This document shows positions 1,259 through 54,068 of a DNA stretch of 64,000 bases, piece by piece (within the stretch, counting starts at the first letter, position 1; each line of letters starts with the position of its first letter). The DNA comes from a virus (Duplodnaviria > Caudoviricetes), in the IMG/VR virus record IMGVR_UViG_2747842453_000003, positions 32,001 through 96,000 of that record; one strand, written 5' to 3'. The notes beneath the pieces were generated by a model that saw only the letters and a program-made list of their open reading frames with translations, searched no databases and was not told the DNA's origin. Position numbers and translations under genes: made by a program.

Positions 1259-1287
1259 GTTATACAGTGATTCGTTCTAAATGTCAA
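1259..1287 (-). promoter_or_regulatory. sigma70 promoter, CGAATCAC class (copy 1)
   Basis: TTGACA TTTAGAACGAATCACTG TATAAC. Confidence 0.85.
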
Positions 1288-1984
1288 GATATATTTCGTT
1301 TAACCAATCAAAATCATTTATTTTTTGTAAGGCTTCTGGCGAATTACGATAGAATTCACCAAAGTCTTCTCCCATCGTTGCACCAACAGAAATTAATTCC
1401 CAGTGTTCAATGGGTAATGGTGATTTCCAGCGTTCAAGTCTTGATTGTATATCATCAGATGCCACTCCACTTGCTAGTTTAACGCATTCTCTAAACGCAC
1501 CTTTCCATGCATTAAATGGAGTCGTTGCAAATCTAGTTTCATTTGAAGGTTTGTCTATACGATAATATGGATAGCCAAGTTTTGCAACACCAGTTGTTAC
1601 ATCAACTAATTTTGTGGAAGTTTTAACAAAGAATGAATTTCGATTAAATAATTTAACACCACCATATCCTGTAAGTTCACCTGTTGCTGGGTTTAATGCT
1701 CTCCAAACGTGAGTACACTGCGTCTGTGGCACAGTAGGATATACATCTATGCTATCTGATGGTATATATGAAAAATCAAAATCATCAATTATCCAAGCAT
1801 CACCATCAACTACATAAAAGTTTTCAGTAGCACTTTGTTCTGCACACGTTAGATGCGCCTCATATACTCCATCGATATCAGCAGTATTAATAACTCGCTG
1901 ATTCTTTGCAACCTTAGATAATATTCTGTTTAAATTGTTATCTGAATAATCATCATGGTAAGTAAGATAGAATACATCTATCAC
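1277..1984 (-). CDS. glycosyltransferase-like phage protein
   Basis: YVVDGDAWI DxD-type motif, GYGGVKLF, AWKGAFRECVKL. Confidence 0.55.
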   Translation of the reverse strand: MIDVFYLTYHDDYSDNNLNRILSKVAKNQRVINTADIDGVYEAHLTCAEQSATENFYVVDGDAWIIDDFDFSYIPSDSIDVYPTVPQTQCTHVWRALNPATGELTGYGGVKLFNRNSFFVKTSTKLVDVTTGVAKLGYPYYRIDKPSNETRFATTPFNAWKGAFRECVKLASGVASDDIQSRLERWKSPLPIEHWELISVGATMGEDFGEFYRNSPEALQKINDFDWLNEIYLDI

Positions 1985-2316
1985 GCCACTTGTATCTCTG
2001 GTGGTTTGCCATTATCGCTGACGCCTAAAATGCCTTCTGGATCGCCTAGCCAAAAACGAATTGATTCTGTTTCTGATAATCGGAGGTCTTGCCCTTGTGA
2101 CCATCTACCGTGTTGCATAAGAACCCAATCGCCAACTGCAACATCAGTTTGCTCTGGTCCTACTGCATATACTTCTGCCCAGCGTGGTCTAATGCCTCTG
2201 TCACCTGCTTCTGCTGTACTATCATCCAAATGAATAATTCCATTTAGTTTTTTAAATCCTGTATCCATATTAGTAAGAATAATTTTATTTCCAACTGGAG
2301 ATAACGTTTTCATCAT
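1981..2316 (-). CDS. GroES/Cpn10-like co-chaperonin
   Basis: LSPVGNKII...GII...AEVYAVGP...VAVGDWVL...ILGV pattern. Confidence 0.7.
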   Translation of the reverse strand: MMKTLSPVGNKIILTNMDTGFKKLNGIIHLDDSTAEAGDRGIRPRWAEVYAVGPEQTDVAVGDWVLMQHGRWSQGQDLRLSETESIRFWLGDPEGILGVSDNGKPPEIQVA

Positions 2317-2323
2317 TGTTTCC

Positions 2324-2803
2324 TTATTTTGATTTTTTAGATTTATTTTTCTTTAGTTCTTCTGCTTTTACAAAATTGCCATCTGCATCTTCTACCCATT
2401 CATCATCATTATTATATTCTTCGGGTATTGGACCAGGGCTAACATTTTCAAATACTGGTTCTACTTTTGTTTCTTTTTGAGCAGGTGGTGCTGGCTCAGG
2501 TGCTGGCTCAGGTGCTGGCTCAGGTGCTGGCTCTTGCCAATCATCTTCCATTGGAACTTCTTGGTTCTTTGGTTTAGGAGTATCATCTAATTTAATAGAT
2601 GCCTGTTTAACTGCATTTGGATTATTTTGATTATAATGTTCTCTTGCAATTTCATCTGCGGCTTTCATAACCCTACCACCACGGCCTAGTTTGTCACCTC
2701 TTGCATTCGATGATGTATTGCCAACGGTAATATTTTTTTCTTGTTTTGATAGTAATTTTCCAAGGTCTAGTTCCACCCCTCGCATACTTCTATATTTTTT
2801 CAT
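2324..2803 (-). CDS. hypothetical protein with (PEPA)n linker
   Basis: 159 aa; 12-bp tandem repeat encodes EPAP. Confidence 0.8.
   Translation of the reverse strand: MKKYRSMRGVELDLGKLLSKQEKNITVGNTSSNARGDKLGRGGRVMKAADEIAREHYNQNNPNAVKQASIKLDDTPKPKNQEVPMEDDWQEPAPEPAPEPAPEPAPPAQKETKVEPVFENVSPGPIPEEYNNDDEWVEDADGNFVKAEELKKNKSKKSK
2487..2533. repeat. 12-bp tandem repeat GGTGCTGGCTCA, about 4 copies
   Basis: Directly visible; coding (PEPA linker). Confidence 0.9.
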
Positions 2804-2815
2804 TTCTTTGCCTTT

Positions 2816-3382
2816 CTATCTAAGGAATTCTTGCCAATCTAACTCATAGTAAACACTATTTATTCGATGTATACCGATTATGTATAACACATAACTTGCG
2901 ACACTACTGCCACGCCCTACACCCCATACAATGTTATTTTCACGCATAAAATCTACCAGATAAACCATATATTGTAGTAATGGTAGCATATCACGTTTAT
3001 TAAATTCATCAAGTTCTTCTATACATCTATTCTGATTTTCTGTAGGAGTTAATTCTAGTACATAATCAATTATATTTAAGTTCTTATATTTTTCTGGAAT
3101 AAACCAATCTGTTTGAAGTCTACGATCAAAATCTTCAATATCTCCTGTTAATTCTTCTATGGCTGTTATTTCTGGTATGTTAATATAATTACTTGTATTT
3201 GCCTTATTATATTTTTCGAAATCTTCATGCCAGTCAACATATTTTATCTGACTAATATCTTCGCCATTGTATAACATCTCATATAGGTCATGTCTATTAT
3301 ATATAACACGTCCGTATTGATCTTTTAATGAATCAATCTTCAACGATTTTTGGCTGCCAATCATGTATCTTAATAACCTCAC
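2816..3382 (-). CDS. stand-alone DNA polymerase III alpha (DnaE) fragment; true start possibly TTG at 3343
   Basis: EEL...YLVDFMRENNIVWGVGRGSSVASYVLYIIGIHRIN matches the DnaE GxGRGS region; stops before the catalytic PDxDxD. Confidence 0.75.
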   Translation of the reverse strand: MRLLRYMIGSQKSLKIDSLKDQYGRVIYNRHDLYEMLYNGEDISQIKYVDWHEDFEKYNKANTSNYINIPEITAIEELTGDIEDFDRRLQTDWFIPEKYKNLNIIDYVLELTPTENQNRCIEELDEFNKRDMLPLLQYMVYLVDFMRENNIVWGVGRGSSVASYVLYIIGIHRINSVYYELDWQEFLR

Positions 3383-3998
3383 CTGGGTGATCTACCAATT
3401 CTAACTCACCCAGTATTACTTGTTGTATTTCATCTAATACATTATCATATTCCGGCGGCGTTGTCAAGTCTGTTTCTTCATCAACATCATAATCATGTGT
3501 TTCTGGTGTATTACGGAACCACCACGGTGTTTTATAATAATATTCTTTTTGTCCTACCCAAGTTTCAAGACTCGGCATAGCAGGATAATCTTCATCTGCA
3601 TATGTATAACTCATTACCGGATTTTCAAATTTACTTGTTATCTTTACACTTACAATATCAATGTTACCTTCCGCAATTGCATTTAATTTAGCACTTATTG
3701 TCATCGCAATAATATCACTTGTTGGTAAATATGGAAACATTACGATGTTATTAGATAAATTATCCATATTAATAAGTGCTGATTTATGTGTAAAAACACT
3801 TTGATGTAATATCTCTTCTAAAAAGAATTTTATTTTTAAAAATGCAGCATTGCCCATAGCGAGATCAGATGTGCACCATACAAAATCTATTTCAGCATCA
3901 AAAATTTCTGAATATAGTGATGCTTCTGCTCCTATAAGTGTTGCACTAAATGTTGCTTTAAATGTGGTATAACTATTTACAGTAAAATTATCTGTCAT
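3333..3998 (-). CDS. hypothetical protein
   Basis: 221 aa in an operon-like run. Confidence 0.75.
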   Translation of the reverse strand: MTDNFTVNSYTTFKATFSATLIGAEASLYSEIFDAEIDFVWCTSDLAMGNAAFLKIKFFLEEILHQSVFTHKSALINMDNLSNNIVMFPYLPTSDIIAMTISAKLNAIAEGNIDIVSVKITSKFENPVMSYTYADEDYPAMPSLETWVGQKEYYYKTPWWFRNTPETHDYDVDEETDLTTPPEYDNVLDEIQQVILGELELVDHPGEVIKIHDWQPKIVED

Positions 3999-4380
3999 TT
4001 TTATAATCTCTATTTAAATTATCTTTTTTCATATTAATGTTGCCATCATACATCCAATATATATTATCCTCATTATTTTTAGATTTATTATCTAATGCAT
4101 GTTCATATGTAAAAAACGACTCAGGTAACATTATAGTTATTTCTTTTAATTTTTCAACTAAATTTATATGACTACTAAAAGTTTCAAAACTTAAAACATT
4201 ATTTCCATTGTCCCACCGAATGTTTTTAAAATTTAATAATGATTCATTATTATTAATCCATTTGTTTTTCATAAATTCGTAAAATCTGGTGACTTCAACA
4301 TCTGACCCATCAATAATAATAGTATGAAATACTTTGATTGGAATATTAGTCGGTGTCGGAATCGTCTGCGTGTTCATCAT
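3988..4380 (-). CDS. hypothetical protein
   Basis: 130 aa, GGAG SD. Confidence 0.65.
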   Translation of the reverse strand: MMNTQTIPTPTNIPIKVFHTIIIDGSDVEVTRFYEFMKNKWINNNESLLNFKNIRWDNGNNVLSFETFSSHINLVEKLKEITIMLPESFFTYEHALDNKSKNNEDNIYWMYDGNINMKKDNLNRDYKNDR

Positions 4381-4603
4381 CTTCTCCTACAATTAAAGAT
4401 TCTGGTGTGCGGTCATTAATAATATCAAATCGTTGTCGATCTAATCTGGCAGTTAATTCCATATGCAAATTTTCTAATATACTTTGCAGTTGTTCAACTA
4501 CTCCGTCTAACCCCATTGAGTTTGCCATATTAATCTTTTTGCTGACATCACCCATCTTAGTGTCCAGTTCCTCTTCGGAGAGATTCTTATACTCTTGAAA
4601 CAT
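4346..4603 (-). CDS. hypothetical protein
   Basis: 85 aa, AAGGA SD. Confidence 0.7.
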   Translation of the reverse strand: MFQEYKNLSEEELDTKMGDVSKKINMANSMGLDGVVEQLQSILENLHMELTARLDRQRFDIINDRTPESLIVGEDDEHADDSDTD

Positions 4604-4652
4604 TATATTATATTCCTTATGTCTCTTTCTTATAGTTATTTAGTATAAGAAT

Positions 4653-5009
4653 TTATTTAATGAATTGTTTTAATTCTGGTGCTTTCCATCCTTCTGGCTT
4701 TAATACCTTACCATCTTCTCTTTTAATAACTTTGCCAGTTGTAGGATTAATTTTGGCAAAGTTAGTATTCATTACTTCATTCCATGCTGCTTCTGCATCC
4801 CAGCCAGCAGCACGAATAGCACCGATAGTAACAACCAGAATATCAACTAATGCATCAAGTTGTTCAACATGATCATTCGCTACCACTGCATCTATTAATT
4901 CACCATACTCTTCATCAATTAACCCCAGGTACATTTTGTAATTTTCTGGTGATGATGGTTGGTCACATGCTTCCGCAAATTTATTAATGTCTTCAAATAC
5001 GTTTGTCAT
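4653..5009 (-). CDS. MazG/PRA-PH-like nucleotide pyrophosphohydrolase
   Basis: LIDEEYGEL...LDALVDIL...WNEVMNTNFAK...REDGKVLKPEGW. Confidence 0.85.
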   Translation of the reverse strand: MTNVFEDINKFAEACDQPSSPENYKMYLGLIDEEYGELIDAVVANDHVEQLDALVDILVVTIGAIRAAGWDAEAAWNEVMNTNFAKINPTTGKVIKREDGKVLKPEGWKAPELKQFIK

Positions 5010-5235
5010 ATTCTGCTACTTTCTTTTCTAATTCAATTATGTATTCAGCAGCCTTCCAAGCATAATGCTCAGTGCATCTTGTTTTCCACTCGTTACCTGC
5101 TTGATTTTTTAATGCTACTACCCATTTACTTTGTTTAATTCGTGGCTTGATATTAGGGTAATCTTTATCAATTACATCGTGTTCGTTTTCTTCTAATTCA
5201 AAACTCTGAGTATTCTGTTCTGATGAATCTACCAT
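4993..5235 (-). CDS. hypothetical protein
   Basis: 80 aa, GAGG SD. Confidence 0.65.
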   Translation of the reverse strand: MVDSSEQNTQSFELEENEHDVIDKDYPNIKPRIKQSKWVVALKNQAGNEWKTRCTEHYAWKAAEYIIELEKKVAEYDKRI

Positions 5236-5454
5236 TTGTCCTCATATATTTCTAAATTTAATATAATCATTATACAGTATTTCAAATGATTATGCAACAC
5301 CTATTTTTGTTTTTTTAAAAAGGCTCTTGCTATTATTCCACTTTTTGTTATTATAATTATACGATCATTTTCATCAAGTACTACATAATATAATACTCTA
5401 TGTCCTGTCTTATTTCTATGTTCTTCTATTCTTGTAGTCATATTATCTTCACTC

Positions 5455-8298
5455 TCATTTTGATAATAATACAGTATTGCCTCCAATTGCAGTAGTATTA
5501 ATACTCACATGCTTCTCCCAAACATATGATTTTAAATAATCTGGTCCACCTGCTTTGGGCCCAGTACCTGACAATCCAATACCACCAAATGGCTGTGTTT
5601 CTACTATTGCTCCAATTTGATCACGATTGATGTAAATATTACCAACATTAACATTATTAGTAATTTCATCATAAAAAGATGCTATTCTGGAATGAATACT
5701 CATGGTTAAACCAAATTTGGTTTCATTAATATCTGATATAATGCCATCTAGTTCATCAACATCATATTCATATACATGTAACAGAGGTCCGAATATTTCC
5801 TTATCAAAATATTTTTTATAATCTGATACTAGATAAGCACTTGGTGGAATTGTTAAAGCAGGTAATTCAACACCATTTCTTGATCTTGTCGCTATCAGTA
5901 TTTCATTTTCTTCAAGTACTGCAATACGTTTTTGTATACTTGCAAAAGCGGCACCATCAATGACACGTGTAACATCAGTATTCAAATCATCACTGAACCC
6001 CATCTGTACAACTTTAATAGCATTTCCCAACATCTTTAAAATAGTATTAGCATTATCTTTTTGTACAAATAAAAATCTTGTTGCACTACAACGCTGTCCT
6101 GCACTATCAAATGCACCGTGTATTACATCTTTAACTAATTGTTCTGGTAAACACGTACTATCAGCAATCATACAATTAATGCCTCCAGTCTCTGCAATAA
6201 ACGGTATAATAGGTCCGTCACGGTCTGCTAACACACGTTGAATACGCTTTGCAGTTTTATGTGAACCAGTAAATGTTATACCGTTAATTCTTTCATCTGA
6301 TACTGCAAGTTCTGCATCCTTAGGATCAGTGGGACATAATCTAATAGCATAATCTGGTATACCGCATTCAAGCATACAACTAACTGCAGTCTCAGCAACC
6401 TTAATTGTTTGTGGCGCAGATTTTGCTAATACAGTATTACCTGTTAGCAATGCTGCTATAATTGGTCCTACAAAAATAGCAAGTGGAAAATTCCATGGTG
6501 CTATAACCATCCACACACCGTGTGCCTGATATGTAGTTGTATTAATTTCGCCTGTATAACTTAACGTATCGCCTTGATTATATAATTTTTCTGCTTGTTC
6601 AGCATAGTATCTAATAAAATCTATGGCTTCCCGAACTTCGCCAATAGCGTTAGGATATGTTTTATTTGCATGTGTAACTAAATTACTTGCTGCTTGTTCC
6701 ATATGTGTTTCCAAATGATCAGCATATTCAAGAACTACTTTCTTTCGTTCATTAAATGTAGTTTTACTCCATTCTTTGCGACCTTTCTCTAGCACTACAA
6801 TACTATCGGTTACTGATAATTGTTCAGGTACAATAAATTCATAACTTGGTCTTCCCACTAGATTTACAATAGATGCAGGATCAGTTAAATCATATCCACG
6901 ACTATTCTTTCGGTTGGGATATAAATCTTTGTATGTTGGTAATTTTTCTTTGTCTTTTTTTGCTTCTATAAATGGATCCACCAGTTGTTGATTAAAAACA
7001 AAACTAGTGTTTGCTCCATTTTCTAATAATCTACGGACAAGATATGCAAGTAAATCTTTGTATTCACCTACAGGCGCATATACTCTAATACTTGTGTTGT
7101 ATGTATTCTGTAGATGGTCAAATAATCCATCACCCATACCATATAACTTTTGAAACTCAAATTCACCTCCTAGGGTTTCGTGGTAAAAGTATATGGCTGC
7201 CACAGTGAATGGATTGTGCGTGGCATAGGCAGGCTTGATATACTCTGATAACATAATCTTTCTTGCACATGCTAGATAACTTATGTCGGTATATTCCTTT
7301 CGTGAGAATACAGGATAGTGTAAGCCTTCTTGTTGTGCTATCTTTATTTCTGTATCCCAATATGCCCCTTTAACTAAACGGACACATATTGATGTATTGG
7401 ATTCTTCTGCAATATGTTCTAATGTTTCTATTGCCCAGAACGCACGTTTTTGATATGCTTGAACTGCGAACCCAATCGTATTTTTTTTAAATTTATGTGT
7501 TAATAATAATTCTTCCAATACCATTATACTTAGATCTAAACGTGATGCTTCCTCAGCATCAATAAACATTGTGGTATTTTTCTCTTCGCATAGCCTGGCA
7601 ATTGCTGCCAATTTTGGTACTAAATGAAGTAATACATCAGCATGATTTTTCAACTCATATCTTGGGTGAATGGCACTTAGTTTAATACTAATGCTATCTT
7701 CAAACCACGCAGCCGCTTGTATATACTTTTCATAATAATCATTTGCATCTGGCCAATTTGTTGCTGCTTCGCCCAACATATCAACTGAATATGTGTATGA
7801 CTCATTTATTGCTTTTTTTGCCTCTTCAATAGTCTCGCCCATTACAAATATGTTGCCCATCCGTTTAACAGATTCTTTAACAATCTTACGAACAGTGGGC
7901 CATCCCAATCTACTAATTAAATTATTATATGCTGCAAAACTCTGGGCTTGAGTTAATACTTTACCACTTAAAGTTGCATAGAAACTATTTTGTGATAGAA
8001 GGTTCCAATCAGCATTTGTTAGTTTTTCTTTAATTAATTTATCTTGTGTTTTTTTATCCGGTGTTCTTAGTAAACATTCGCATAGTGTCATTAACGCAAT
8101 TCCTTCATTGCCTGATAATTCATATGCAGTCATAAGTTGATGTATCATACTAGATTCATTAAATGCAGAATTAATTACATTCGATGTTTCTAATATTTCG
8201 GTTCGGTCATCTTTATTTAATCTGGCTGCCAATATTAACTTAGGCATGATTTCGTTTTCATCAATGCGATAATACATATTATGTTGATATACTTTCAT
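5455..8298 (-). CDS. putA: bifunctional proline dehydrogenase / P5C dehydrogenase
   Basis: PRODH motifs DAEE, VRLVKGAYWDTEIK, ATHN, FQKLYGMG, LAYLVRRLLENGANTSF; ALDH motifs PWNFPLAIF, FTGS, AETGG, SAGQRCSA, EIFGP, QPFGG-GLSGTGPKAGG. Confidence 0.95.
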   Translation of the reverse strand: MKVYQHNMYYRIDENEIMPKLILAARLNKDDRTEILETSNVINSAFNESSMIHQLMTAYELSGNEGIALMTLCECLLRTPDKKTQDKLIKEKLTNADWNLLSQNSFYATLSGKVLTQAQSFAAYNNLISRLGWPTVRKIVKESVKRMGNIFVMGETIEEAKKAINESYTYSVDMLGEAATNWPDANDYYEKYIQAAAWFEDSISIKLSAIHPRYELKNHADVLLHLVPKLAAIARLCEEKNTTMFIDAEEASRLDLSIMVLEELLLTHKFKKNTIGFAVQAYQKRAFWAIETLEHIAEESNTSICVRLVKGAYWDTEIKIAQQEGLHYPVFSRKEYTDISYLACARKIMLSEYIKPAYATHNPFTVAAIYFYHETLGGEFEFQKLYGMGDGLFDHLQNTYNTSIRVYAPVGEYKDLLAYLVRRLLENGANTSFVFNQQLVDPFIEAKKDKEKLPTYKDLYPNRKNSRGYDLTDPASIVNLVGRPSYEFIVPEQLSVTDSIVVLEKGRKEWSKTTFNERKKVVLEYADHLETHMEQAASNLVTHANKTYPNAIGEVREAIDFIRYYAEQAEKLYNQGDTLSYTGEINTTTYQAHGVWMVIAPWNFPLAIFVGPIIAALLTGNTVLAKSAPQTIKVAETAVSCMLECGIPDYAIRLCPTDPKDAELAVSDERINGITFTGSHKTAKRIQRVLADRDGPIIPFIAETGGINCMIADSTCLPEQLVKDVIHGAFDSAGQRCSATRFLFVQKDNANTILKMLGNAIKVVQMGFSDDLNTDVTRVIDGAAFASIQKRIAVLEENEILIATRSRNGVELPALTIPPSAYLVSDYKKYFDKEIFGPLLHVYEYDVDELDGIISDINETKFGLTMSIHSRIASFYDEITNNVNVGNIYINRDQIGAIVETQPFGGIGLSGTGPKAGGPDYLKSYVWEKHVSINTTAIGGNTVLLSK

Positions 8299-8834
8299 AG
8301 CCTTTTACTCGCCTTGCTTTTAAAAATATTTCTTTCAATATATCTGATATGGCGAAGTATATCTAAGTTTATATCAAATTTGGCCCTAATCTCTCCCAGT
8401 GTTTGGTTCTTATATGAGTCAAAGTTAATTTTATGTATATTTTTAGTACGACGAGTCTTGCCGTAAACAATCCCCATATCAAATGCTATTAATTCTCTTT
8501 CGCCAAAACGATATATCTTTGGAAATATATGTGATGCATAGTATTTATACATTGATATTTGCCAATTCTTTAGTGTGATTGCATTTCCCATAGTATAGCC
8601 TATTACAAATGCTTCGTCTTGATTTAGTAGTCCTCTTCCTAATAATACATGTATACAATCGTGGGACTCTAAACATATAGAACCAGGAAGACTCAATGGT
8701 GACCGAGGATTTTCTATTATCTTTACTTTCCAACTAATATTTACACTATCACTACCCGGCAATGTGTCTAACACAGAATTAAGTGTGTCATTGCCATTGT
8801 CAATGCCTGGATTCCAATCACCATAGTTTATCAT
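8295..8834 (-). CDS. Coq4-like HDxxH metal-binding protein
   Basis: HDCIHVLLG...DEAFVIG motif; stop overlaps the putA start. Confidence 0.55.
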   Translation of the reverse strand: MINYGDWNPGIDNGNDTLNSVLDTLPGSDSVNISWKVKIIENPRSPLSLPGSICLESHDCIHVLLGRGLLNQDEAFVIGYTMGNAITLKNWQISMYKYYASHIFPKIYRFGERELIAFDMGIVYGKTRRTKNIHKINFDSYKNQTLGEIRAKFDINLDILRHIRYIERNIFKSKASKRL

Positions 8835-8855
8835 AATTATATTTATTCATTAAAC

Positions 8856-8987: not shown

Positions 8988-9320
8988 CTATAAAACTTTT
9001 TCTTGTAATAATGAATATACACACTCAATTACTTGTGTTGAGAACCCACCAATGTGCCAGTCATATTCGTCCATTGGGGTTGAAGGCCGTTTCCAATCAT
9101 AAATTGTCGCAACAACAACTTCTTCTATAAAACTGCCAGGCGCATCTTGTAATTGAATTACAAATTCCAAGTTCCACTCAACATTGGTCTTGTCACCATG
9201 AGTATAAGTAGGCTCACCAAAAGCAGCAACAATGTCAGCATATGTGGTATTAACATATCCTTGCAGCCCAGTACCATTGACGTTAACACTTTCATCATTT
9301 GTAATATTAATAATTTTCAT
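8988..9320 (-). CDS. phage hypothetical protein
   Basis: 110 aa, ATIYDWK...WHIGG, AGGAG SD. Confidence 0.75.
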   Translation of the reverse strand: MKIINITNDESVNVNGTGLQGYVNTTYADIVAAFGEPTYTHGDKTNVEWNLEFVIQLQDAPGSFIEEVVVATIYDWKRPSTPMDEYDWHIGGFSTQVIECVYSLLQEKVL

Positions 9321-9463
9321 TACACATCTCCTACTGTGAGATTTACTCGTTTTACACCATTACGCTTTCCAATATAAAAGAAGAACTTCTTTGCGCTTTC
9401 ATATGTTTTGAATTCTTTTGTCTTTTTAGGATAGTTGTAGTAGCCATATTCAACAGTAAACAT
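9320..9463 (-). CDS. hypothetical protein, 47 aa
   Basis: Read manually (MFTVEYGYYNYPKK...); GAGGG SD after the promoter at 9491-9519. Confidence 0.65.
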   Translation of the reverse strand: MFTVEYGYYNYPKKTKEFKTYESAKKFFFYIGKRNGVKRVNLTVGDV

Positions 9464-9490: not shown

Positions 9491-9519
9491 TTTATATAGT
9501 GATTCGTTTAAGATGTCAA
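9491..9519 (-). promoter_or_regulatory. sigma70 promoter, CGAATCAC class (copy 2)
   Basis: TTGACA TCTTAAACGAATCACTA TATAAA. Confidence 0.85.
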
Positions 9520-10313: not shown

Positions 10314-10652
10314 TTAGCGTAAGTAGTTAGGACCAGTCCACTGAACTGTATAATCATTTGAAAGAATATTGCCACGGGCAGAATTTCGTGCAGGAGCATT
10401 GAAGCCTGCTGCTTTTAGAATATCGCCGCGCTTGAATTTCTTATCGTTGTCAGTGTTGACAATAAAACCCCAAACACCATTATTAATAATTTTAATGTAT
10501 TTGCTACCAGTCTTAACAGTAAGACGATTGTTAAACTCATTAATCATATTCTGAACGTGTGTTTCAGCATCGGCAAAAGACTTACCACGAAGTAACCATT
10601 TGGCATAGTCTGCTTTGATTGTAGCGATAAGAGTGTCAATTTGATTTTGCAT
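10314..10652 (-). CDS. phage hypothetical protein
   Basis: 112 aa, GSKYIKI...GDILKAAGFNAPARNSARGNI. Confidence 0.8.
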   Translation of the reverse strand: MQNQIDTLIATIKADYAKWLLRGKSFADAETHVQNMINEFNNRLTVKTGSKYIKIINNGVWGFIVNTDNDKKFKRGDILKAAGFNAPARNSARGNILSNDYTVQWTGPNYLR

Positions 10653-10683: not shown

Positions 10684-10712
10684 TTTATATAGTGATTCGT
10701 TTAGAATGTCAA
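10684..10712 (-). promoter_or_regulatory. sigma70 promoter, CGAATCAC class (copy 3)
   Basis: TTGACA TTCTAAACGAATCACTA TATAAA. Confidence 0.85.
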
Positions 10713-16023: not shown

Positions 16024-16239
16024 TTATTCATCGAACTTCATATATTCTACTTGTTGGTCACCGTTCTCTAATGTTCTACGACTTTTAACACGAATAAATT
16101 TTAACTCTTCTAGTTCTGTTAATATAAAATCAGTAGCACTAATTGCACCAATTTTACGACCATGGTGCCTTCCCATAAGAAAGATAACTCCTGCAATTAA
16201 TACGGCCCACCAGCCCGACGGTTCTGTAAACATTTCCAT
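16024..16239 (-). CDS. hypothetical membrane protein
   Basis: AGGAG SD; downstream of the promoter at 16261-16289. Confidence 0.65.
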   Translation of the reverse strand: MEMFTEPSGWWAVLIAGVIFLMGRHHGRKIGAISATDFILTELEELKFIRVKSRRTLENGDQQVEYMKFDE

Positions 16240-16260: not shown

Positions 16261-16289
16261 AATATATATTGATTCTATTACAATGTCAA
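16261..16289 (-). promoter_or_regulatory. sigma70 promoter with GAATC in the same register as the CGAATCAC class
   Basis: TTGACA TTGTAATAGAATCAATA TATATT. Confidence 0.7.
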
Positions 16290-26662: not shown

Positions 26663-27292
26663 TTAGTTCCAACGATAAAAAATATGTGATCCAATACGTC
26701 CAATCAAATCCATACCACGATCACTTCGCCATGCAGGGTTAACATAGGTAGCGTGATAATGTGTGGCACCTTCTGTGATACCACGAAAACGTTCATCGTG
26801 AATCATTTCCCAAGCAACCATTTGTGCACGAACCCAGTTCTCGGAACCTTCTGGTACTTTATCTGATTTACCATCACAATACCAAGAGAATTGGCATCTA
26901 TTTCGACGCATATTACCATTACTATCTTTTTGCCCATCGTAGACCACTTCACATACCGTATTAGGATAATGAGAATGTAACACACGATTCAAAACCACAT
27001 CAGCAACCGCTGCCATGCCAGCATGATTATCTATGCCACTTTCAAAGAAAATATTCTGTGCCATACAAAACTCTTGCTTATATTTTTCAGGAGAATATAG
27101 AAAAAATTCCTTATCTTTACGTGATTTATAATTGGATAATGCAGCCAATACTACAGTGTTTTCTATTGTTTGTTCAATAGTTTGTGTAATAGGAGTTTCG
27201 TTTTTTACACTTGCCTGTGGGGTTGTTACACTTACAAGTGTTGCTATAATTGCTGCGTTGACTGAGTATGCTATTACATTTTTCAGTTTCAT
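26663..27292 (-). CDS. SleB-like cell wall hydrolase (Hydrolase_2)
   Basis: CMAQNIFFES, AVADVVLNRV, YPNTVCEVV, CQFSWYCDG, GATHYHA, IGSHIFY. Confidence 0.92.
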   Translation of the reverse strand: MKLKNVIAYSVNAAIIATLVSVTTPQASVKNETPITQTIEQTIENTVVLAALSNYKSRKDKEFFLYSPEKYKQEFCMAQNIFFESGIDNHAGMAAVADVVLNRVLHSHYPNTVCEVVYDGQKDSNGNMRRNRCQFSWYCDGKSDKVPEGSENWVRAQMVAWEMIHDERFRGITEGATHYHATYVNPAWRSDRGMDLIGRIGSHIFYRWN

Positions 27293-27326: not shown

Positions 27327-27355
27327 TTTATACAGTGATTCGTTTTAAATGTCAA
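27327..27355 (-). promoter_or_regulatory. sigma70 promoter, CGAATCAC class (copy 4)
   Basis: TTGACA TTTAAAACGAATCACTG TATAAA. Confidence 0.85.
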
Positions 27356-46589: not shown

Positions 46590-47299
46590 GCCCAGACATC
46601 CAATATTGGCAATAAGTGTGAAACAACCACTGCTGATTTTTTTGAACTGTCATCAACAAAAGTATCAAAATCAGTGTGTGAGTTTTCTCCTGCAAGATCA
46701 CTTAATACTCGTACTACAATAAATGGTACATTGCATTGACAACAAGTTTGTGCAATCGCAGCACCTTCCATTTCTACCGCATCTGCATCAAACTGTTTGT
46801 GAAACATTTCTCTTGTTTGTGAACAACTAAGATATGTATCGCCAGTAATTATTGTTCCAAATTGTACATCTTTTCCCAAGTGTGATTTTATATAATCTCG
46901 CATTGGATCACTCATTTCAAATGATATGGAATCCGTTGTATCTTCAAGTGATGGGAAACTTCCTGGTAAACTAGAATACACTTCACCATCAACTATTGCA
47001 CCATAATCATGTTGAATCAGTTTGTCTGCAATTATGACATCCCCTATATTAAATTTGGGATTTAAGCCACCAGCGACTCCACTAAATATGATACTTTTAC
47101 AATCAAAATGTGATATTAGTATTGTTGATGTTATTGCCGCATTTACTTTTCCAATTCCACATTCAGCCGCAATAACATCAATATCATTAATTTTGCCTAT
47201 ATGAAATTCTTTTTTCATAACTGTTACAGTTGTGGGTGAATTGTCCCATTTAATTTTTGAATACTCTTCTGGAATAGCGGAAATCATTCCGACTGTCAT
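46586..47299 (-). CDS. mtnN: 5'-methylthioadenosine / S-adenosylhomocysteine nucleosidase
   Basis: GIGKVNAA, FSGVAGG, GDVII, QHD, AVEMEGAAIAQ, RVLSD. Confidence 0.92.
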   Translation of the reverse strand: MTVGMISAIPEEYSKIKWDNSPTTVTVMKKEFHIGKINDIDVIAAECGIGKVNAAITSTILISHFDCKSIIFSGVAGGLNPKFNIGDVIIADKLIQHDYGAIVDGEVYSSLPGSFPSLEDTTDSISFEMSDPMRDYIKSHLGKDVQFGTIITGDTYLSCSQTREMFHKQFDADAVEMEGAAIAQTCCQCNVPFIVVRVLSDLAGENSHTDFDTFVDDSSKKSAVVVSHLLPILDVWA

Positions 47300-47302
47300 T
47301 AA

Positions 47303-48037
47303 TTAATCCTCTTCAACATTATATTCTAGCATATAACTTATTGCCAGATGTCCTTGTATACTTCTATCTATGTTTTTATTATATACTATTACATCAGAAA
47401 TGTCAACATCTATATTACTTACTAACTTATCCAAATTTGATGGTGATTTGTCTGGTGCAAACCAAGTATTATATTCATCTAAATGCGATTCATAATTATA
47501 CTTTTGTAGAATAAATGAAGTAGTTTCATCTTGTGGTGATCCAGGAATAGTATGAAAGTCACCAGCAATAATAGTAGGTCTATCTTTATATAGATTTAAT
47601 AAAAACTCAATATCAGTCTTTCTATCTAAATCATTTATAAGTGTTGAATTAACGTCACTAGTATCTTGTGGATAACAAGGTAAAAACGTAATAATATTTA
47701 CACCGTCAAGTTGCGCTCTTAATGCAGTGCACCCTTGAGACTTATGATTTTCACCAATTTTTATCACCTTTTCATAAGATGGTAATGTAATACTTTTCAT
47801 CTTTGAAAATGGATGACCTGAATGATTTTTTCCCATTGCAACACATAAATTACCTACGCCAGGTGTAGATTCCAAAAAGAACAATCTGCAACCTATTATG
47901 GATTCTATCTCTTTTTTTGCTTCCATTGGTACACGTTGTAGTAGGAATACATCTACATCTTTGGCTGCATTGCGTAAATATTCTATTCCCCACTTCATGC
48001 CATCCATATTATATTGTAATACTCTAATACTAGGCAT
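47303..48037 (-). CDS. endonuclease/exonuclease/phosphatase-fold protein (divergent)
   Basis: VLQYN, DVFLLQ, IIAGDF, LDK, GHLAI. Confidence 0.65.
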   Translation of the reverse strand: MPSIRVLQYNMDGMKWGIEYLRNAAKDVDVFLLQRVPMEAKKEIESIIGCRLFFLESTPGVGNLCVAMGKNHSGHPFSKMKSITLPSYEKVIKIGENHKSQGCTALRAQLDGVNIITFLPCYPQDTSDVNSTLINDLDRKTDIEFLLNLYKDRPTIIAGDFHTIPGSPQDETTSFILQKYNYESHLDEYNTWFAPDKSPSNLDKLVSNIDVDISDVIVYNKNIDRSIQGHLAISYMLEYNVEED

Positions 48038-48041
48038 TAAA

Positions 48042-48356
48042 TTATTCCGCAGGTTCTATAGTGGTTACTAATGCAAGTCCATTGTTTCTAGATATACGGG
48101 TTGTTTCTTCTACTTTTTGTTCTGCAATTTCCATATAGTACATACCAACAATAGCATTTCCTTCTTGATGAATTTTAGATGCTATATCACTTGCAGTTTC
48201 TATTTCATGGTGAAATAACTTAACTAATACTTCAATTACAAAATCAAACGGTGTAGTATCATCATTATGCATCATAACGTAATATCTTTTAGGAGATTCT
48301 AATTCCAGTTCAGTATCTAACTTCTCTGAAATGATAATTTTTTCATCTGCTATCAT
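48042..48356 (-). CDS. clpS: Clp protease adaptor ClpS
   Basis: YYVMMHNDDTTPFDFVIEVL...IHQEG...EIAEQKV. Confidence 0.93.
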   Translation of the reverse strand: MIADEKIIISEKLDTELELESPKRYYVMMHNDDTTPFDFVIEVLVKLFHHEIETASDIASKIHQEGNAIVGMYYMEIAEQKVEETTRISRNNGLALVTTIEPAE

Positions 48357-48391
48357 TTGTTTGTTGATCCTATATTTTTAGTATATTTATT

Positions 48392-48422
48392 AAAAAGAGA
48401 GAAATATTTCTATTTCTCTCTT
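48392..48422 (-). terminator. intrinsic terminator after hsp20
   Basis: AAGAGAGAAATA/TATTTCTCTCTT followed by a T run. Confidence 0.7.
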
Positions 48423-48440
48423 AATATAATATCACAATTA

Positions 48441-48857
48441 TTATCTAATTGCAATAGTTTTCGGTTGTTTTTCTTCAGGAACTTTTCGTTCAAGAGATAC
48501 AAATAATAGTCCATCTTCCATGGTCGCATCAATTACTTCAACATAATCAGCAAGTTTCCATTCTCTGGTGAATGCACGATTTGCAATTCCACGATGAATA
48601 TATTCACGGCCTTCTTGTTCAATTTCAGGTTTTGAACCGGAAATAGTTAGTAGACCTTCTTTAACCGTGATTGCAATATCATCACGACTAAAACCTGCTA
48701 GTGCCAATGTAATTTGATATTTGTCTTCATCAATAGACTCTACATTATATGGTGGATAACCAGTGTTATCCAAACGATTAAAATCATTTAGTAGTCTATC
48801 AAAACCCAATACTGAGCGATGAAAATCTGGTAAGTTTAATGTTGTTACTCTTGTCAT
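48441..48857 (-). CDS. small heat-shock protein (IbpA/Hsp20)
   Basis: GFDRL, YPPYNV, LAGF, YIHRGIANRAF, DGLL; start reassigned to ATG 48857. Confidence 0.93.
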   Translation of the reverse strand: MTRVTTLNLPDFHRSVLGFDRLLNDFNRLDNTGYPPYNVESIDEDKYQITLALAGFSRDDIAITVKEGLLTISGSKPEIEQEGREYIHRGIANRAFTREWKLADYVEVIDATMEDGLLFVSLERKVPEEKQPKTIAIR

Positions 48858-48935
48858 TTTGTTTCTCCTTTTAATAAGCAAGATATGTTGGGTCCCTTAT
48901 GGCGACCCAAGTAAGGTAAACTTTTTACCCTACAG
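48855..48935 (-). promoter_or_regulatory. ROSE-like RNA thermometer in the hsp20 5' UTR
   Basis: Two upstream hairpins plus an SD hairpin UCUUGCUU/AAGGAGA with the UUGCU bulged-G motif. Confidence 0.75.
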
Positions 48936-48969
48936 TTATATTTAGTGATTTTTTTCCAAATGTCAAGTG

Positions 48970-49206
48970 TTATACACTTATTTTTTCAGAAAAAAGTATG
49001 ATATCTTTTGCTGGACCAACGTCACACGGTAATCCACCGTGTTCATTAATATAATATTTCAACACCGCCTTATACCATAGTTGGCTATTGTGGTGTGCTT
49101 GTTTGTTGAATTTTGCAATGCCACCAGAAGAACCATCCATTGTAAGTAACGCTCTGGATGATTCTTTCTGTAATGTTCTCAAATCTAGTGTATCTAAATC
49201 TATCAT
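48970..49206 (-). CDS. hypothetical protein
   Basis: 78 aa, coupled to rpsU. Confidence 0.65.
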   Translation of the reverse strand: MIDLDTLDLRTLQKESSRALLTMDGSSGGIAKFNKQAHHNSQLWYKAVLKYYINEHGGLPCDVGPAKDIILFSEKISV

Positions 49207-49457
49207 ATATTATCTTGTTGGCGTTTCATTTTTTGCCAACGCTTACGTCCTGCATCTTTTGCTTTACGTTTGATTTCACTTGGCTTTACGAATTCTTTTC
49301 GTGTTCTAATTTCTTGTACTAGTCCTTCTTCGGTGCATTTCTTTTTAAATCTACGAAACGCTTTTTCAAAGTTTCCATTTTTTACTTCAACTGTCATTCC
49401 AGACTTCGCATATCTGTCAGAGTCGTTTCCTTTTACATAGTGATTATTTTTAGTCAT
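49203..49457 (-). CDS. rpsU: ribosomal protein bS21
   Basis: VEVKNGNFEKAFRRFKKK...EIRTRKEFVKPSEIKRK. Confidence 0.9.
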   Translation of the reverse strand: MTKNNHYVKGNDSDRYAKSGMTVEVKNGNFEKAFRRFKKKCTEEGLVQEIRTRKEFVKPSEIKRKAKDAGRKRWQKMKRQQDNI

Positions 49458-49974
49458 TTTTTTGTATTAAACCTGTAATTCTATTGCCATTCAATTTTAG
49501 TGGCTGTTCATATTTCCAGTTGGCTAAACCATTAGAAATTGCTTCTACAAAAAATGTCAGAACATCGTGTGCTTTGGCATTTTCTCGGCCTTTCATTTGT
49601 ATAGTTATTTTAACTTTAGAACCATTATCAATAAACTTTTGTGCTTTACGCATTTTTATTTGTAAGTCATGAATACCGATTCCTGGTCTGAATTTAACTT
49701 CTTTAATTTCAACAGCATTTGCCCTAGCAGATTTCTCTTGAAATTTCTGACGTTTTTTCAGTTCGTAATTATATTTATTAAGACTAATTATTTTCGCTAC
49801 CGGCGGCATTGCATCTGGTACTATTAGTACCAAATCCAAGTTTGCAACACTAGCCATGTTCTGTGCAGCCTCATTAGACATTACACCCAGTGCTTCGCCA
49901 TCACTTCCTATAATTCGTAACTCAGTAACTGTTATTTGCTCATTATACTTAATTGCGGATTTGTTTCTATCCAT
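49450..49974 (-). CDS. infC: translation initiation factor IF-3
   Basis: NEQI, LDLVLI, PPVAKI, KEVKFRPGIGIHDL, KVKITI..KGRE. Confidence 0.92.
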   Translation of the reverse strand: MDRNKSAIKYNEQITVTELRIIGSDGEALGVMSNEAAQNMASVANLDLVLIVPDAMPPVAKIISLNKYNYELKKRQKFQEKSARANAVEIKEVKFRPGIGIHDLQIKMRKAQKFIDNGSKVKITIQMKGRENAKAHDVLTFFVEAISNGLANWKYEQPLKLNGNRITGLIQKND

Positions 49975-51231
49975 TTATGATTTTTGTTTAACCTTCGCTT
50001 CTTCATCGAACACTAATATAGGTTCTTCATTTCCCAAAATAAATGCATCTGTAATATGTACAGATGAAAGTCCTTGTTCAGTTGCCAATCTAGGTAACGT
50101 AAACTGCAATTTCAAAAGTGATTTCTCAATAACACTTCTTAAACCACGAGCACCAGTATCATCAGTTTTTGCTTTTTTTGCAATCTGCTCAAGTGCAGAT
50201 TCAGCAATATTTAACTCTACGCCATCCAACATGAAAAGTTTCTTAAACTGTGCGATAATACTATTCTTTGGCTCAGTTAACACTTGTATTAGTTGGCTCT
50301 CAGTAAGTGAATCTAGTCCAACAATAATAGGAAACCTACCCATAAACTCTGGAATAACACCGTACTTGATTAAATCTTTTGATTCAACTTGCTCACGTAT
50401 ATTTATCTTATTCAATGTTTTATCATATACTTTGGCACCAAAACCAATACCAGAGTTACTAGTAATTCTTCGTTCAATAACTTTGTCGATTCCTACAAAT
50501 GCACCACCAACAACAAACAAAATTTTACTTGTGTCAACTTCAATCATTTCACTACCAGGATGCTTTCTACCACCACTAGGCTGAACACGGACTTTTGTAC
50601 CTTCTACGATTTTAAGCAATGCTTGTTGAACACCTTCACCACTCACATCTTTTGTGATCGAAACATTTTCGCCTTTTTTGGCTTTTTTATCTATTTCATC
50701 AATATAGACAATACCGTATTCTGCTTTTTGCACATCAAAATCTGCTGCTATAAGCAATTTTTGTACTACATTCTCGACATCATCTCCGACATATCCGCTT
50801 TCAGTTAATGAAGTTGCATCAACTTGTGCAAATGGAACATCAAGAAATCGTGCGATTGTTTGAGCAAGCAATGTTTTGCCAGTGCCTGAGGGACCTAAAA
50901 TCATTACATTTGATTTATCCAACTCTACGCCATCTGAATCGTCAGAATTAATACGCTTATAATGATTATATACCGCAACACTTAATACTTCTTTGGCTTC
51001 GTCTTGGCCAATAACGTAAGAATCAAGATATTCTTTAATATCCTCAGGACAGGGAAGTGAACTAGTACCTTCAGTTATTTCTGCAAAATTTTCTTTTGAG
51101 TCATGGATTATTTCATAACACAAATCAATACATTCATTACAAATGAATTGATTCGGTCCAGCAATTAGTGTCTTAACAACATCTTTTTCTTTATTGCAAA
51201 ATGAACAAGTATAATCTTTAGTATCAGTCAA
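49975..51231 (-). CDS. clpX: ATP-dependent Clp protease ATPase ClpX
   Basis: CSFC/CNEC zinc domain, [32 protein letters not shown] loop, TGARGLR. Confidence 0.97.
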
Positions 51232-51244
51232 GTAATCACCTATA

Positions 51245-52600
51245 TTATTTCTTGTCTAGCCAGCCATGTCGCTTTACTAAACTTGTATTTAATTTTCTAG
51301 TTATATCTTCTTTAGTTTCTTCTACACCAGTATCGTCTATATTAGAGGCAATGTCAAGTTTTTTTTTATCTTTTTTTGCAAAAAGTGCATCAAAAATTTC
51401 TTCTTGACTACTATCATTATCATTACGATTTTTAAAACTGTAGTTGGCAGCAATTAATAATAATACTGCTAAGGGATCAAAAACAAAAATGAATACAATT
51501 ATCAGCCAACGTACTGCATCATCGATTGTATTTCTTTCTGTATTACCATATACTAATTCAGCAATATACTTTATAGGTCCAACTTCTGCCTCTAAGACTC
51601 TAACTTCGGTTTCTAATTGAAACTTGTTATCCAATGAAGTGGAAATATTAGTTTCAGTTTCTTGTACAATATTACGCAATTCTAAAATTTTAGTTGTATT
51701 ATCTATTTCTGCAACACGGTCTAATTGTGAACGTAATCTAGTAATAGTTGTTTGTGACTTCTGCACATCACGATCCGCAATAGTACGAAGTCTTTTTATT
51801 TCAACTCTTGCCTGTTCAACTATTGATGTATCAATACTAGTACGAATATTTTCTACAATATTAACAAGTTTCTTTTTTTCTGCTTGTTGTGATATACGAA
51901 ACTGGTCTACTTTTTTTGCAGTTTGTGGTCCGTAGTTGCCATCCGTTTTTACTCCAACCAAGGCTTGTAATTTTTTTATTTCATCATTTACAACAAAAGA
52001 TTGTAAATTATCAAGTGTAGTATCTATATTGGCTATTTGTACCAAATATGATTTAACTTGATTATCTGTGCCATTCTGTTCATTTGAAATAATATCAAGT
52101 TGTTCATCTATTGCTGGTTGAACTCTAGCATATGCTTGATCCATACGATTTTGTTCTGCATCTATTTGTGATTGTATTTCATCTGTATTATTTGTATTTT
52201 GTGTTTCTAATTTTGAAATCTTAATCTCAGACCGTTTTATTGTATCTTCATAACGAATTATATCATTCTCTATACGTTCAATACGTGCTTGTGATTGTAA
52301 GCCTTCACTTGCCTGTTCTAAATGGGCACGTGATAGAAAGCCAAAAATGCCCATCGATGTGATGAACATTAGCACAACTACTGCAAATGTAAGATAAGAT
52401 TTTAATAGAAAGGGCGCTTTTCGCCAATTTCTGTAGACCCAAGATGCAGCAACTAACTTGCCTATTTCTAAAGATCCAGCCATTAATGCAACTGGTAGTG
52501 CAGATGCGGCAAATATTGCCATCAATCCAGCAACTGAAAACCATGCAGCAACCGCTGCAATAATTAGGGCTACTGAGAACACCAAAAGTGAAAAAACCAT
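51245..52600 (-). CDS. membrane protein with long coiled coil and PG-binding-like motif
   Basis: N-terminal TMs, coiled coil, [18 protein letters not shown]-terminal [11 protein letters not shown]. Confidence 0.7.
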
Positions 52601-52664
52601 TTTACTCTCCTATGGATAATTACAGCCCTCTTCATCTGTATTTATCATTTTAGGAGAGTAAAAT
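52599..52664 (-). promoter_or_regulatory. RBS-sequestering hairpin containing a late-type promoter element
   Basis: 14-bp perfect inverted repeat 52599-52612 / 52651-52664 covering SD and AU of AUG; GATAAATAC at 52638-52646. Confidence 0.7.
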
Positions 52665-52676
52665 TATATTTATATA

Positions 52677-53180
52677 TTACATATTGACATTGAGTGTTAC
52701 GGTACTGCCTATTTTGTACCAATTCTGAGTGTATAGTTGAATAACTTGTCCACTCACATCAAGTGTAACCATATTTGCACCACGAACTTTAATTACTTTA
52801 TCCGTATATACTGAACGGCATTTTTCTTCTTGACGATAACCTACAATGACTGTTTGTTGTTTGCCGTTTTTATTAACCTTGTCAGCACCAACAATAGCAC
52901 CTAGAACCGTCATTGCATCTTTGCCTTTGCCACCACCGAATTGATTACCAATTACACCGCCAATGATTGCACCCACAAGGGCGTCACCAGAACTTGCTTC
53001 ACCTGTCCGGCGAGTTTCATAGATTGGTACATCTACTACACCACATGTACGTACTGGAACAGATTGAACACTGTCTCGGTATGTTTCTTTCATGCCAACA
53101 ACTGTTCCTTTAATTTGGTCAGCATATGAAGCCGATGCAGTCATTAGTAGTGCCGCGGTAATTGCGATTATATTTTTCAT
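52677..53180 (-). CDS. glycine-zipper 2TM exported protein
   Basis: Signal peptide; GAIIGGVIGNQFGGGKGKDAMTVLGAIVG. Confidence 0.85.
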   Translation of the reverse strand: MKNIIAITAALLMTASASYADQIKGTVVGMKETYRDSVQSVPVRTCGVVDVPIYETRRTGEASSGDALVGAIIGGVIGNQFGGGKGKDAMTVLGAIVGADKVNKNGKQQTVIVGYRQEEKCRSVYTDKVIKVRGANMVTLDVSGQVIQLYTQNWYKIGSTVTLNVNM

Positions 53181-53272
53181 TGAGTAAGTCCTTTTATAAT
53201 ATTTTCAAGTTTTTCTACTCGTTCTTCAAGTAGAATAATTTTTCTTTCTAGTGATTGAGAATTATTCATCAA

Positions 53273-53659
53273 TTAAGATCCTGTAACAAGTTCAAGTGTG
53301 CCGTCTTCACCAAACTCAAAATCTTCGATATAAGAATGATGTGTGCCACTTTGTTTAATGCATGATTCTGCTGCAGCCCACAATGCCTTGATTGAGCCAT
53401 TTACGGCAAGAGAACTAACTTGCATCATTGTGTTGTTAGTACCGTTACGCAAATCTGCGTTAATTTCTTCAACAGTTGCATCAGGACGAACAGACTCATA
53501 AGTTACTTTACGAACTTTATTAGAGAACAATTCAAACTCAGGACCCTTTGTGCCGAATTCATACATACTCCAAACAGTTGACATACCCAACTCTTGCTGC
53601 ATTTCATCAAAGTGGTTCATTGAAACTGTGAATTCATCGTATTGCGCTTGATTTGTCAT
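53273..53659 (-). CDS. phage hypothetical protein
   Basis: 128 aa, GAGG SD. Confidence 0.75.
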   Translation of the reverse strand: MTNQAQYDEFTVSMNHFDEMQQELGMSTVWSMYEFGTKGPEFELFSNKVRKVTYESVRPDATVEEINADLRNGTNNTMMQVSSLAVNGSIKALWAAAESCIKQSGTHHSYIEDFEFGEDGTLELVTGS

Positions 53660-53690
53660 ACTATATTTCCTCTTTACTGTCTATACTTAC

Positions 53691-53719
53691 TTTATATAGT
53701 GATTCGTTCAGAATGTCAA
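53691..53719 (-). promoter_or_regulatory. sigma70 promoter, CGAATCAC class (copy 5)
   Basis: TTGACA TTCTGAACGAATCACTA TATAAA. Confidence 0.85.
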
Positions 53720-53727
53720 CCTTTTTA

Positions 53728-54006
53728 TTATGCTGCCGATAACATTTCTGCAGGAACTTTCCAGTTCATATGTCCTACTTGTACGTGAATATAACGACGG
53801 TTTACTTTACTGATAACACCAGTTTCAACCATCTTACTACGACTAGTGAATTTAACACTATCACCGACAACGAATGACCGAACTTTTTGATTAGCCAAGA
53901 ACGTGCGCTGTAGTTGAACACGACTAGCGATTTCGTTCAATTGATCATAGTCGGCTTTTCCTACTAGTGCAAGAATTGTTTCCATTTCAGTTATTGACAG
54001 TTTCAT
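53728..54006 (-). CDS. phage hypothetical protein (SH3-like C-terminus)
   Basis: FVVGDSVKF...GVISKVNR...WKVP. Confidence 0.75.
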   Translation of the reverse strand: MKLSITEMETILALVGKADYDQLNEIASRVQLQRTFLANQKVRSFVVGDSVKFTSRSKMVETGVISKVNRRYIHVQVGHMNWKVPAEMLSAA

Positions 54007-54039
54007 AATAAATCCTCTTTCTCTCTAACTTATACACTC

Positions 54040-54068
54040 TTTATATAGTGATTCGTTTAGAATGTCAA
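54040..54068 (-). promoter_or_regulatory. sigma70 promoter, CGAATCAC class (copy 6)
   Basis: TTGACA TTCTAAACGAATCACTA TATAAA. Confidence 0.85.

Follow-up and report, generated by a model that had tools for sequence, protein, structure and literature searches.

A GANTC box at a fixed place in the promoters of an uncultured marine phage: a candidate site for host GcrA

A family of promoters in a 64,000-nucleotide stretch of viral DNA, the window, raises the question of what, if anything, reads a 7-bp box that recurs at the same place in the spacer that separates the -35 from the -10. The window comprises bases 32001-96000 of a 146,030 bp contig deposited in IMG/VR as IMGVR_UViG_2747842453_000003 (Duplodnaviria, Caudoviricetes; GC 35.6%), the completeness of which is about 40% according to CheckV. 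The box contains GANTC, the alphaproteobacterial CcrM methylation target. A sequence-only reading of the window had suggested that these promoters are gated by methylation state or by GcrA, a sigma70 cofactor. In the analysis described here, recruitment of host GcrA emerges as the best reading of the box, held with a confidence a little better than even, and the phage, a marine giant phage, would probably borrow host GcrA to start infection.

The box promoters and their conservation

The pattern TTGACA-N7-CGAATCAC-N2-TATAA was found, exactly as the sequence-only reading had claimed, at six places in the window (1260-1287, 9492-9519, 10685-10712, 27328-27355, 53692-53719 and 54041-54068), all on the minus strand. 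No match was obtained in 100 dinucleotide-preserving shuffles, and none is expected by chance as against the six sites. An unbiased scan of the whole contig for promoters of the form TTGACA-N16-18-TATAAT-like gave 14 promoters with the box in register, TTGACA-N7-[C/A]GAATCA-N3-TATAA(A/C), in which GANTC occupies positions 9-13 of a 17-bp spacer. The box is CGAATCA in 13 of them and AGAATCA in one. Seven of the in-register copies lie beyond the window, at contig 28113, 96968, 97547, 118520, 132236, 133171 and 134202. GANTC begins at spacer position 9 in 14 of the 15 spacers of 17 bp that hold it. All 14 box promoters are on the coding strand with a ribosome-binding site and start codon 20-30 nt downstream, and several stand directly behind terminator-like hairpins. 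The box is present in about half of the contig's host-type promoters. When the contig is pooled with G402, a 342-kb, 92% complete contig of the same clade whose SleB-like hydrolase is 66% identical to that of the window, the box is in register in 26 of 45 TTGACA-N17-TATA promoters.

The remaining descriptive claims of the sequence-only reading also held. A seventh promoter, at 16261-16289, keeps the register with the variant AGAATCA, which is TGATTCT on the other strand and lies within the GcrA consensus YGAKTCK. The GAATC of the promoter at 907-935 is displaced by three bases towards the -35, and this promoter is probably one of the box-independent class. No box is present in the promoters at about 14.5 kb, 43.7 kb and 58.5 kb, of which the third is that of the transfer-messenger RNA (tmRNA); the contig has about eight box-free promoters with a TGn extended -10, the tmRNA promoter among them. 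The genes behind the box promoters are chiefly small orphans, together with the SleB-like hydrolase, an AAA ATPase, a possible nucleotidase and an operon containing a DNA methyltransferase.

The enrichment of GANTC that would accompany such a design was found in the spacers, at position 9, and between genes, where 35 sites were observed against about 18 expected, roughly a twofold excess to which the promoter boxes contribute 16, but not genome-wide (340 observed against 392 expected; observed/expected ratio, O/E, 0.87). The shorter word CGAATC occurs 39 times in the contig: 13 times in box promoters, four times in tRNA T-arms and 22 times elsewhere (about 36 expected). The O/E of GAWTC is 0.96 and that of GASTC 0.67; GACTC/GAGTC is depleted (80 observed, 120 expected) and GAATC/GATTC is not (260 observed, 272 expected). 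This contrast between the two pairs reverses the one that PMC8919816 describes for SAR11.

The strict pattern occurs in at least 113 IMG/VR stretches. Among the relatives, G402 has 15 copies, G406 has 17, G404 has six and G403, which is 100% complete and with G402 serves as the near-complete comparison, has two; in each the copies are on one strand, and no copies turned up with the reversed-pattern control. Ahead of the box, seven spacer bases are free to vary in G402 (e.g. CACTCTG, GTTTGTA, TCCGTTG), and CGAATC(A/G) is constant. Orthologous hydrolase loci, retrieved through the protein and not through the motif, keep the -35, the box and the -10 down to 66% protein identity with other spacer bases differing, and in phages at 60% protein identity or less they have TGn promoters in which the box is absent. 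When the methyltransferase was used to retrieve loci, all 13 complete close relatives kept the box, the sole change being C to A, which gives TGATTCT. On these comparisons the box is a selected, modular element in its own right. Chance, or hitch-hiking through promoter duplication, was considered as an explanation and ruled out because the flanking spacer bases change and the box does not. A short-query blastn search with the motif returned no named phage.

Likeness to GcrA sites and promoter anatomy

Among the sites bound by GcrA, MEME ranks TGATTCG at the top of a broader consensus, YGAKTCK (Haakonsen 2015, PMC4647560; Wu 2018, PMC5887438; Wu 2023, PMC9976885). The sites of the GcrA regulon form a narrow cluster at -20 in the -35/-10 spacer and a looser one from +2 to +30, and for boxes upstream of the start the centre is at -20±1 or -30±2. 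GcrA binds sigma70 domain 2, which reads the -10 element, and stimulates open-complex formation. In the cryo-electron microscopy complex on promoter PcsM, GAATC at -22 to -18 in the spacer is occupied by a monomeric DNA-binding domain. The DNA-binding domain of GcrA contacts all seven bases, and GcrA prefers methylated sites.

These papers confirm what the sequence-only reading gave as established, namely that TGATTCG fits the GcrA site and that GcrA is a sigma70 cofactor. Its proposal that GcrA gates the promoters stands in part. Five independent features of the phage box are specifically like those of GcrA boxes: the word, the degeneracy of its variants, orientation, position and anchoring to the -10. 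No gcrA was found in the phage. The promoters combine a sigma70-type core with a GANTC that falls inside YGAKTCK. Among 36 in-register boxes collected without bias, 31 are CGAATCA, three CGAATCG, one AGAATCA and one CGAATCT; CGAATCG and AGAATCA, which correspond to the alternatives allowed by Y and K, are within YGAKTCK and only the single CGAATCT is outside it.

Between the box and the -10 hexamer lie 3 bp, and the centre of the box, 7 bp upstream of the hexamer, would be at about -19 if transcription starts some 7 nt after the hexamer. G402 has 24 box promoters, 15 with 17-bp spacers and nine with 16-bp spacers, and in both sets GANTC ends 4 bp ahead of the -10 hexamer. Given that this distance is constant in spacers of different length, the box is positioned from the -10 and not from the -35. 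Such anchoring would suit a reader attached to sigma domain 2.

A TGn extended -10 is present in eight of the 11 box-free promoters of this genome and in none of its 14 box promoters (Fisher P 1.5e-4). Of the 29 box promoters with 17-bp spacers in the contig and G402, 28 are without T at -7, a base that is usually critical, their -10 being TATAA(A/C) or TATACA. The box promoters look activator-dependent, as though built to need help with opening. Mutual exclusion of the box and TGn fails as a general rule and is true in this genome only, since the 16-bp-spacer set of G402 brings together the box, TGC and TATATT in nine promoters.

Past the -10 hexamer of the box promoters, at 5-9 nt, there is a conserved GTA(T)A. 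This start region (e.g. window 54026-54034; L122-L139) reads GTATA(A/G) here and TGTAA or AGTAGTCAAGAGAG in G402, and the AGTAGTCAAGAGAG form is common to the early promoters of the T4-like cyanophage S-H34 (AATAGAGTAGTCAAAG). Further downstream, GAGAATCA(C/A) is found 3-4 nt before the ATG of three promoter-proximal genes (contig 30934, 97237 and 132236, minus strand). At about +25 to +30 it would fit YGAKTCK in the downstream window of GcrA; it may equally be a shared ribosome-binding-site leader.

A mechanism can be proposed for these promoters. Sigma70-type promoters served by host RNA polymerase would drive early, non-structural genes of the phage, each pairing a consensus -35 with a deliberately imperfect -10 and the 7-bp CGAATCA (TGATTCG on the template strand). 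Monomeric host GcrA, riding on RNA polymerase by way of sigma70 domain 2, would dock on the spacer box and, once docked, would stimulate polymerase binding and open-complex formation. In an alphaproteobacterial host the phage would gain early promoters that are strong and depend on the reader. It is speculative that the GANTC adenine has to be N6-methylated or that the box has a role as a timer.

Alternative readers, methylation and the host

The box might instead be read by a protein of the phage itself, expressed from the TGn promoters that have no box or carried in by the virion, and acting either as an activator of delayed-early or middle genes or as a repressor that binds the spacer and shuts the promoters off. 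A box-free TGn class beside a box class with a weak -10 is the layout of a two-step programme in which such a protein would have a role akin to that of T4 MotA. The box is confined to a single clade of phages, the same hydrolase or methyltransferase genes have TGn promoters in phages further away, the majority of cultured phages that infect alphaproteobacteria are without the box, and in the incomplete contig most genes are orphans; all of this would suit a phage-encoded reader. However, no GcrA was found by Pfam, tblastn or a custom hidden Markov model in the contig, G402 or G403, and neither the MotA C-terminal domain nor AsiA was found above cut-off in G000, G402, G403 or G406, so that the relatives of 92% and 100% completeness offer no GcrA-, MotA- or AsiA-like gene. 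The box promoters retain a consensus -35, unlike MotA-type promoters, and a dimeric repressor would not usually have an asymmetric 7-bp site. The design is also present in the unrelated siphophage CRP-6. With a reader of the phage's own, the GcrA word, nearly all of its variants, the position and the anchoring to the -10 would all be coincidence, and we regard this alternative as somewhat unlikely.

Spacer sequence modulates sigma70 promoters, and in this genome the box statistically substitutes for the TGn extended -10. Both points would be in keeping with an intrinsic core-promoter element, read by host RNA polymerase or sigma70 or felt through the shape of the spacer DNA, with no factor and no methylation involved. 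Such an element is very unlikely to be the answer. Its seven near-invariant base pairs hold about as much information as the -35 hexamer and we know of no polymerase-read element of this kind; moreover, the box and TGn coexist in the nine G402 promoters and the architecture is not enriched in 401 alphaproteobacterial genomes.

The full model of the sequence-only reading goes beyond recruitment of GcrA. It holds that the promoters fire only on incoming DNA carrying N6-methyladenine (m6A) and fade as the mark is diluted by replication, so that the box would time events epigenetically or sense the cell cycle of the host. Because this model is a subset of the GcrA reading its probability is contained in that of the latter, and taken by itself it is unlikely. 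The preference of GcrA for methylated sites speaks for it, as does the detection of m6A-GANTC in marine Caudovirales by single-molecule real-time sequencing and in marine Alphaproteobacteria. So does the presence, in the operon driven by the box promoter at contig 118520, of a beta-class adenine methyltransferase whose best match among solved structures is CcrM (6pbd, E 2.5e-20). Very many contigs of uncultured marine phages, up to 352 kb long, carry the enzyme at 75-97% identity, and no homologue was found in named phages at E 1e-20. Against the timer, the enzyme scores 96 bits where the cut-off of the CcrM NCBIfam equivalog is 830; it has no CcrM C-terminal domain and lacks Arg44. By these measures the phage methyltransferase is not CcrM-type. 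A search of the phage for gcrA and ccrM homologues gave no gcrA and a sole methyltransferase that is neither CcrM-type nor coupled to the box.

To return to host GcrA, we infer an alphaproteobacterial host that has both GcrA and CcrM. The pointers to such a host are the alpha-type tmRNA (115 bits) and the promoter in CRP-6, a cultured roseophage of Rhodobacteraceae FZCC0042. In CRP-6, TTGACG-N7-CGAATCA-N3-TATACA stands at 918-946, some 350 nt upstream of a hydrolase homologous to that of the window (41% identity), and ten of the 13 YGATTCG sites of this phage fall in its last 2.6 kb (P 1e-10). These ten sites (L235, 42300-44927) lie in both orientations around divergent small genes. Bona fide GcrA is encoded in AT-rich alphaproteobacterial genomes of 0.9-1.5 Mb, some with TGATTCG/CGATTCG upstream of gcrA, and AT-rich, small alphaproteobacteria are plausible as host types. 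SAR11 has an active CcrM-type enzyme; an older survey records no CcrM or GcrA in a genome cluster that includes Pelagibacter. A Firmicute host, suggested by the 35% GC and the SleB-like gene, was set aside on account of the alpha-type tmRNA and a set of genes typical of a marine myophage.

Several observations weigh against host GcrA as the reader. GANTC in the phage is without the depletion typical of CcrM hosts, and the phage box is nearer to the -10 than that of PcsM by 1 bp. The methyltransferase aligns solely to the methyltransferase domain of CcrM, without the C-terminal DNA-binding domain, and departs from CcrM at Arg44 (to Asp), Pro45 (to Thr), Lys118 (to Tyr) and Glu135 (to Tyr); homologues of 73-79% identity occur in phages that have no box promoters, and G402 has no PF01555 gene despite its 24 boxes. 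The host evidence has similar gaps. Alpha-type tmRNA is also present in Melnitz, a phage of the betaproteobacterium OM43. Six large phages in culture on alphaproteobacteria, HTVC008M (host SAR11), Phosso, Atu_ph07, Cr30, phiM12 and PAU, show 0 or 1 site. Nine roseophages were examined including CRP-6, and none of the other eight has the box design, nor was it found in Melnitz or in cyanophage S-H34. In 401 alphaproteobacterial chromosomes the architecture gave seven hits against about 14 for the reversed-pattern control. The 401 genomes sampled include the unpublished G384, on which no conclusion depends. ClpX gives no host signal, being 52-59% identical to homologues across all Pseudomonadota, and PutA gives none either (at least 64% identity within a phage clade, at most 44% to cellular proteins).

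The idea that the phage writes its own mark was rejected as a general model, the methyltransferase and the box not co-occurring. Since self-methylation is not general to the system, any mark would therefore come from the host.

The coordinates of the promoters and of the other features are collected in Table 1. The contig also encodes baseplate-wedge proteins, a ClpA/ClpB-type AAA+ Clp ATPase, ClpX, PutA, MetK, an IMPDH/GMP-reductase-like enzyme, an M17 aminopeptidase, ribonucleotide reductase, tRNAs and a two-piece tmRNA, and no close relative of the contig was found among cultured phages. The sole match of the tmRNA in a named phage is a 59-nt stretch of the SsrA gene of Melnitz. The PutA identities drop sharply between the phage clade, which includes contigs of up to 472 kb, and the cellular proteins, and a search of genome contigs returned only a distant Luteibacter aldehyde dehydrogenase; PutA is an old, widespread auxiliary gene of the phage lineage. 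The genes for the Clp ATPase and ClpX lie in contig 20-32 kb and at window 49975-51231. The Clp ATPase has 747 aa and is nearest to those of phages Phosso, PA5oct and Atu_ph07 (43-47% identity). Caulobacter ClpXP degrades the cell-cycle regulator CtrA, and a tie between the phage Clp proteins and the box-promoter class would be pure speculation.

Table 1. Promoters and other features referred to in the text (window coordinates unless marked as contig; ORF, open reading frame)
Feature	Position	Strand	Remarks
Box promoter TTGACA-TTTAGAA-CGAATCA-CTG-TATAAC	1259..1287	minus	Upstream of 55-aa orphan ORF (1063-1230)
Box promoter TTGACA-TCTTAAA-CGAATCA-CTA-TATAAA	9491..9519	minus	Upstream of 47-aa orphan ORF (9320-9463)
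Box promoter, consensus sequence	10684..10712	minus	Upstream of 112-aa ORF (10314-10652), weak DUF7717 match only
Box promoter TTGACA-TTGTAAT-AGAATCA-ATA-TATATT	16261..16289	minus	Same register; upstream of 71-aa membrane-like ORF (16024-16239)
Box promoter of SleB-like cell-wall hydrolase gene (26663-27292)	27327..27355	minus	Pfam Hydrolase_2, E 7e-23
Box promoter	53691..53719	minus	Upstream of 128-aa orphan ORF (53273-53659)
Box promoter, consensus	54040..54068	minus	Directly after T-run; upstream of 92-aa orphan ORF (53728-54006)
Related promoter, TGC extended -10	907..935	minus	GAATC at spacer positions 6-10; upstream of 79-aa ORF (639-878)
tmRNA promoter TTGACA-N17-TATAAA, TGT extended -10	58513..58541	minus	Box-free; contrast case
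tmRNA (two-piece)	58158-58545	minus	Rfam alpha_tmRNA 115 bits; tmRNA_permuted 102 bits
PutA, 947 aa	5455-8298	minus	Phage-only clade
Beta-class N6-adenine methyltransferase, 288 aa	contig 116875-117741 (L001:1339-2205)		PF01555 113 bits, DPPY motif

Significance and comparison with known systems

It is possible, though doubtful, that a widespread clade of uncultured marine giant and T4-like phages and at least one unrelated roseophage have early promoters that work only with host GcrA as reader of methylation, coupling the start of infection to host replication or cell cycle through m6A-GANTC. GcrA/CcrM is the best-understood bacterial epigenetic transcription module and is known only from cellular cell-cycle genes; with a class of early promoters dependent on GcrA, a virus would for the first time be seen to use an epigenetic reader of bacteria in cis regulation. 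No publication on GcrA boxes in phage promoters was found in the literature searched, and a scan of cultured phages for the GcrA motif gave no positional signal (Mascolo 2022, PMC9437464). If the GcrA reading holds, the first transcription of abundant ocean phages would depend on a cofactor by which replicating host cells are marked, which would bear on when marine alphaproteobacteria are open to infection. It would also offer a route, from sequence alone, to predicting alphaproteobacterial hosts of uncultured phages, and a supply of natural, near-identical and very strong GcrA-dependent promoters for biochemistry.

The closest known counterparts are the GcrA/CcrM promoters of Caulobacter crescentus such as PcsM, which have the same 7-bp word as a single monomer-sized site in the spacer, near -20, close to where the phage box would lie. 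The geometry in both systems is tied to the -10 and sigma domain 2, and both appear to need help with opening. The phage promoters differ in belonging to an AT-rich phage genome and in their E. coli-like TTGACA/TATAAA core, and their box is far more uniform than those of the cellular regulon. The phiCbK-like phages and Atu_ph08 engage the GcrA module of alphaproteobacterial hosts (PMC7987155, PMC6630229), as the phage described here would; those phages carry the trans factor GcrA, whereas this phage would carry the cis element, with no gcrA detected. Phages of Alphaproteobacteria with CtrA sites (Mascolo 2022, PMC9437464) have promoters wired to a host cell-cycle regulator, as this phage may have, but the regulator is a different one and so is the site, TTAA-N7-TTAA.

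The middle promoters of T4 resemble the box promoters in that an extra element at a fixed place marks a temporal class, the phage described here being T4-related. The MotA box of T4, however, replaces the -35 at about -30 and needs MotA and AsiA, whereas the phage box would lie at about -19 with the -35 kept. The early promoters of the T4-like cyanophage S-H34 (Synechococcus phage) share the -35 TTGAC(A/T), the TGC extended -10 and the leader AATAGAGTAGTCAA, which is also present in the 16-bp-spacer promoters of G402, but they differ from the box promoters in having no GANTC in the spacer register. By this comparison of promoters the box is an addition to a shared backbone and is confined to one sub-lineage.

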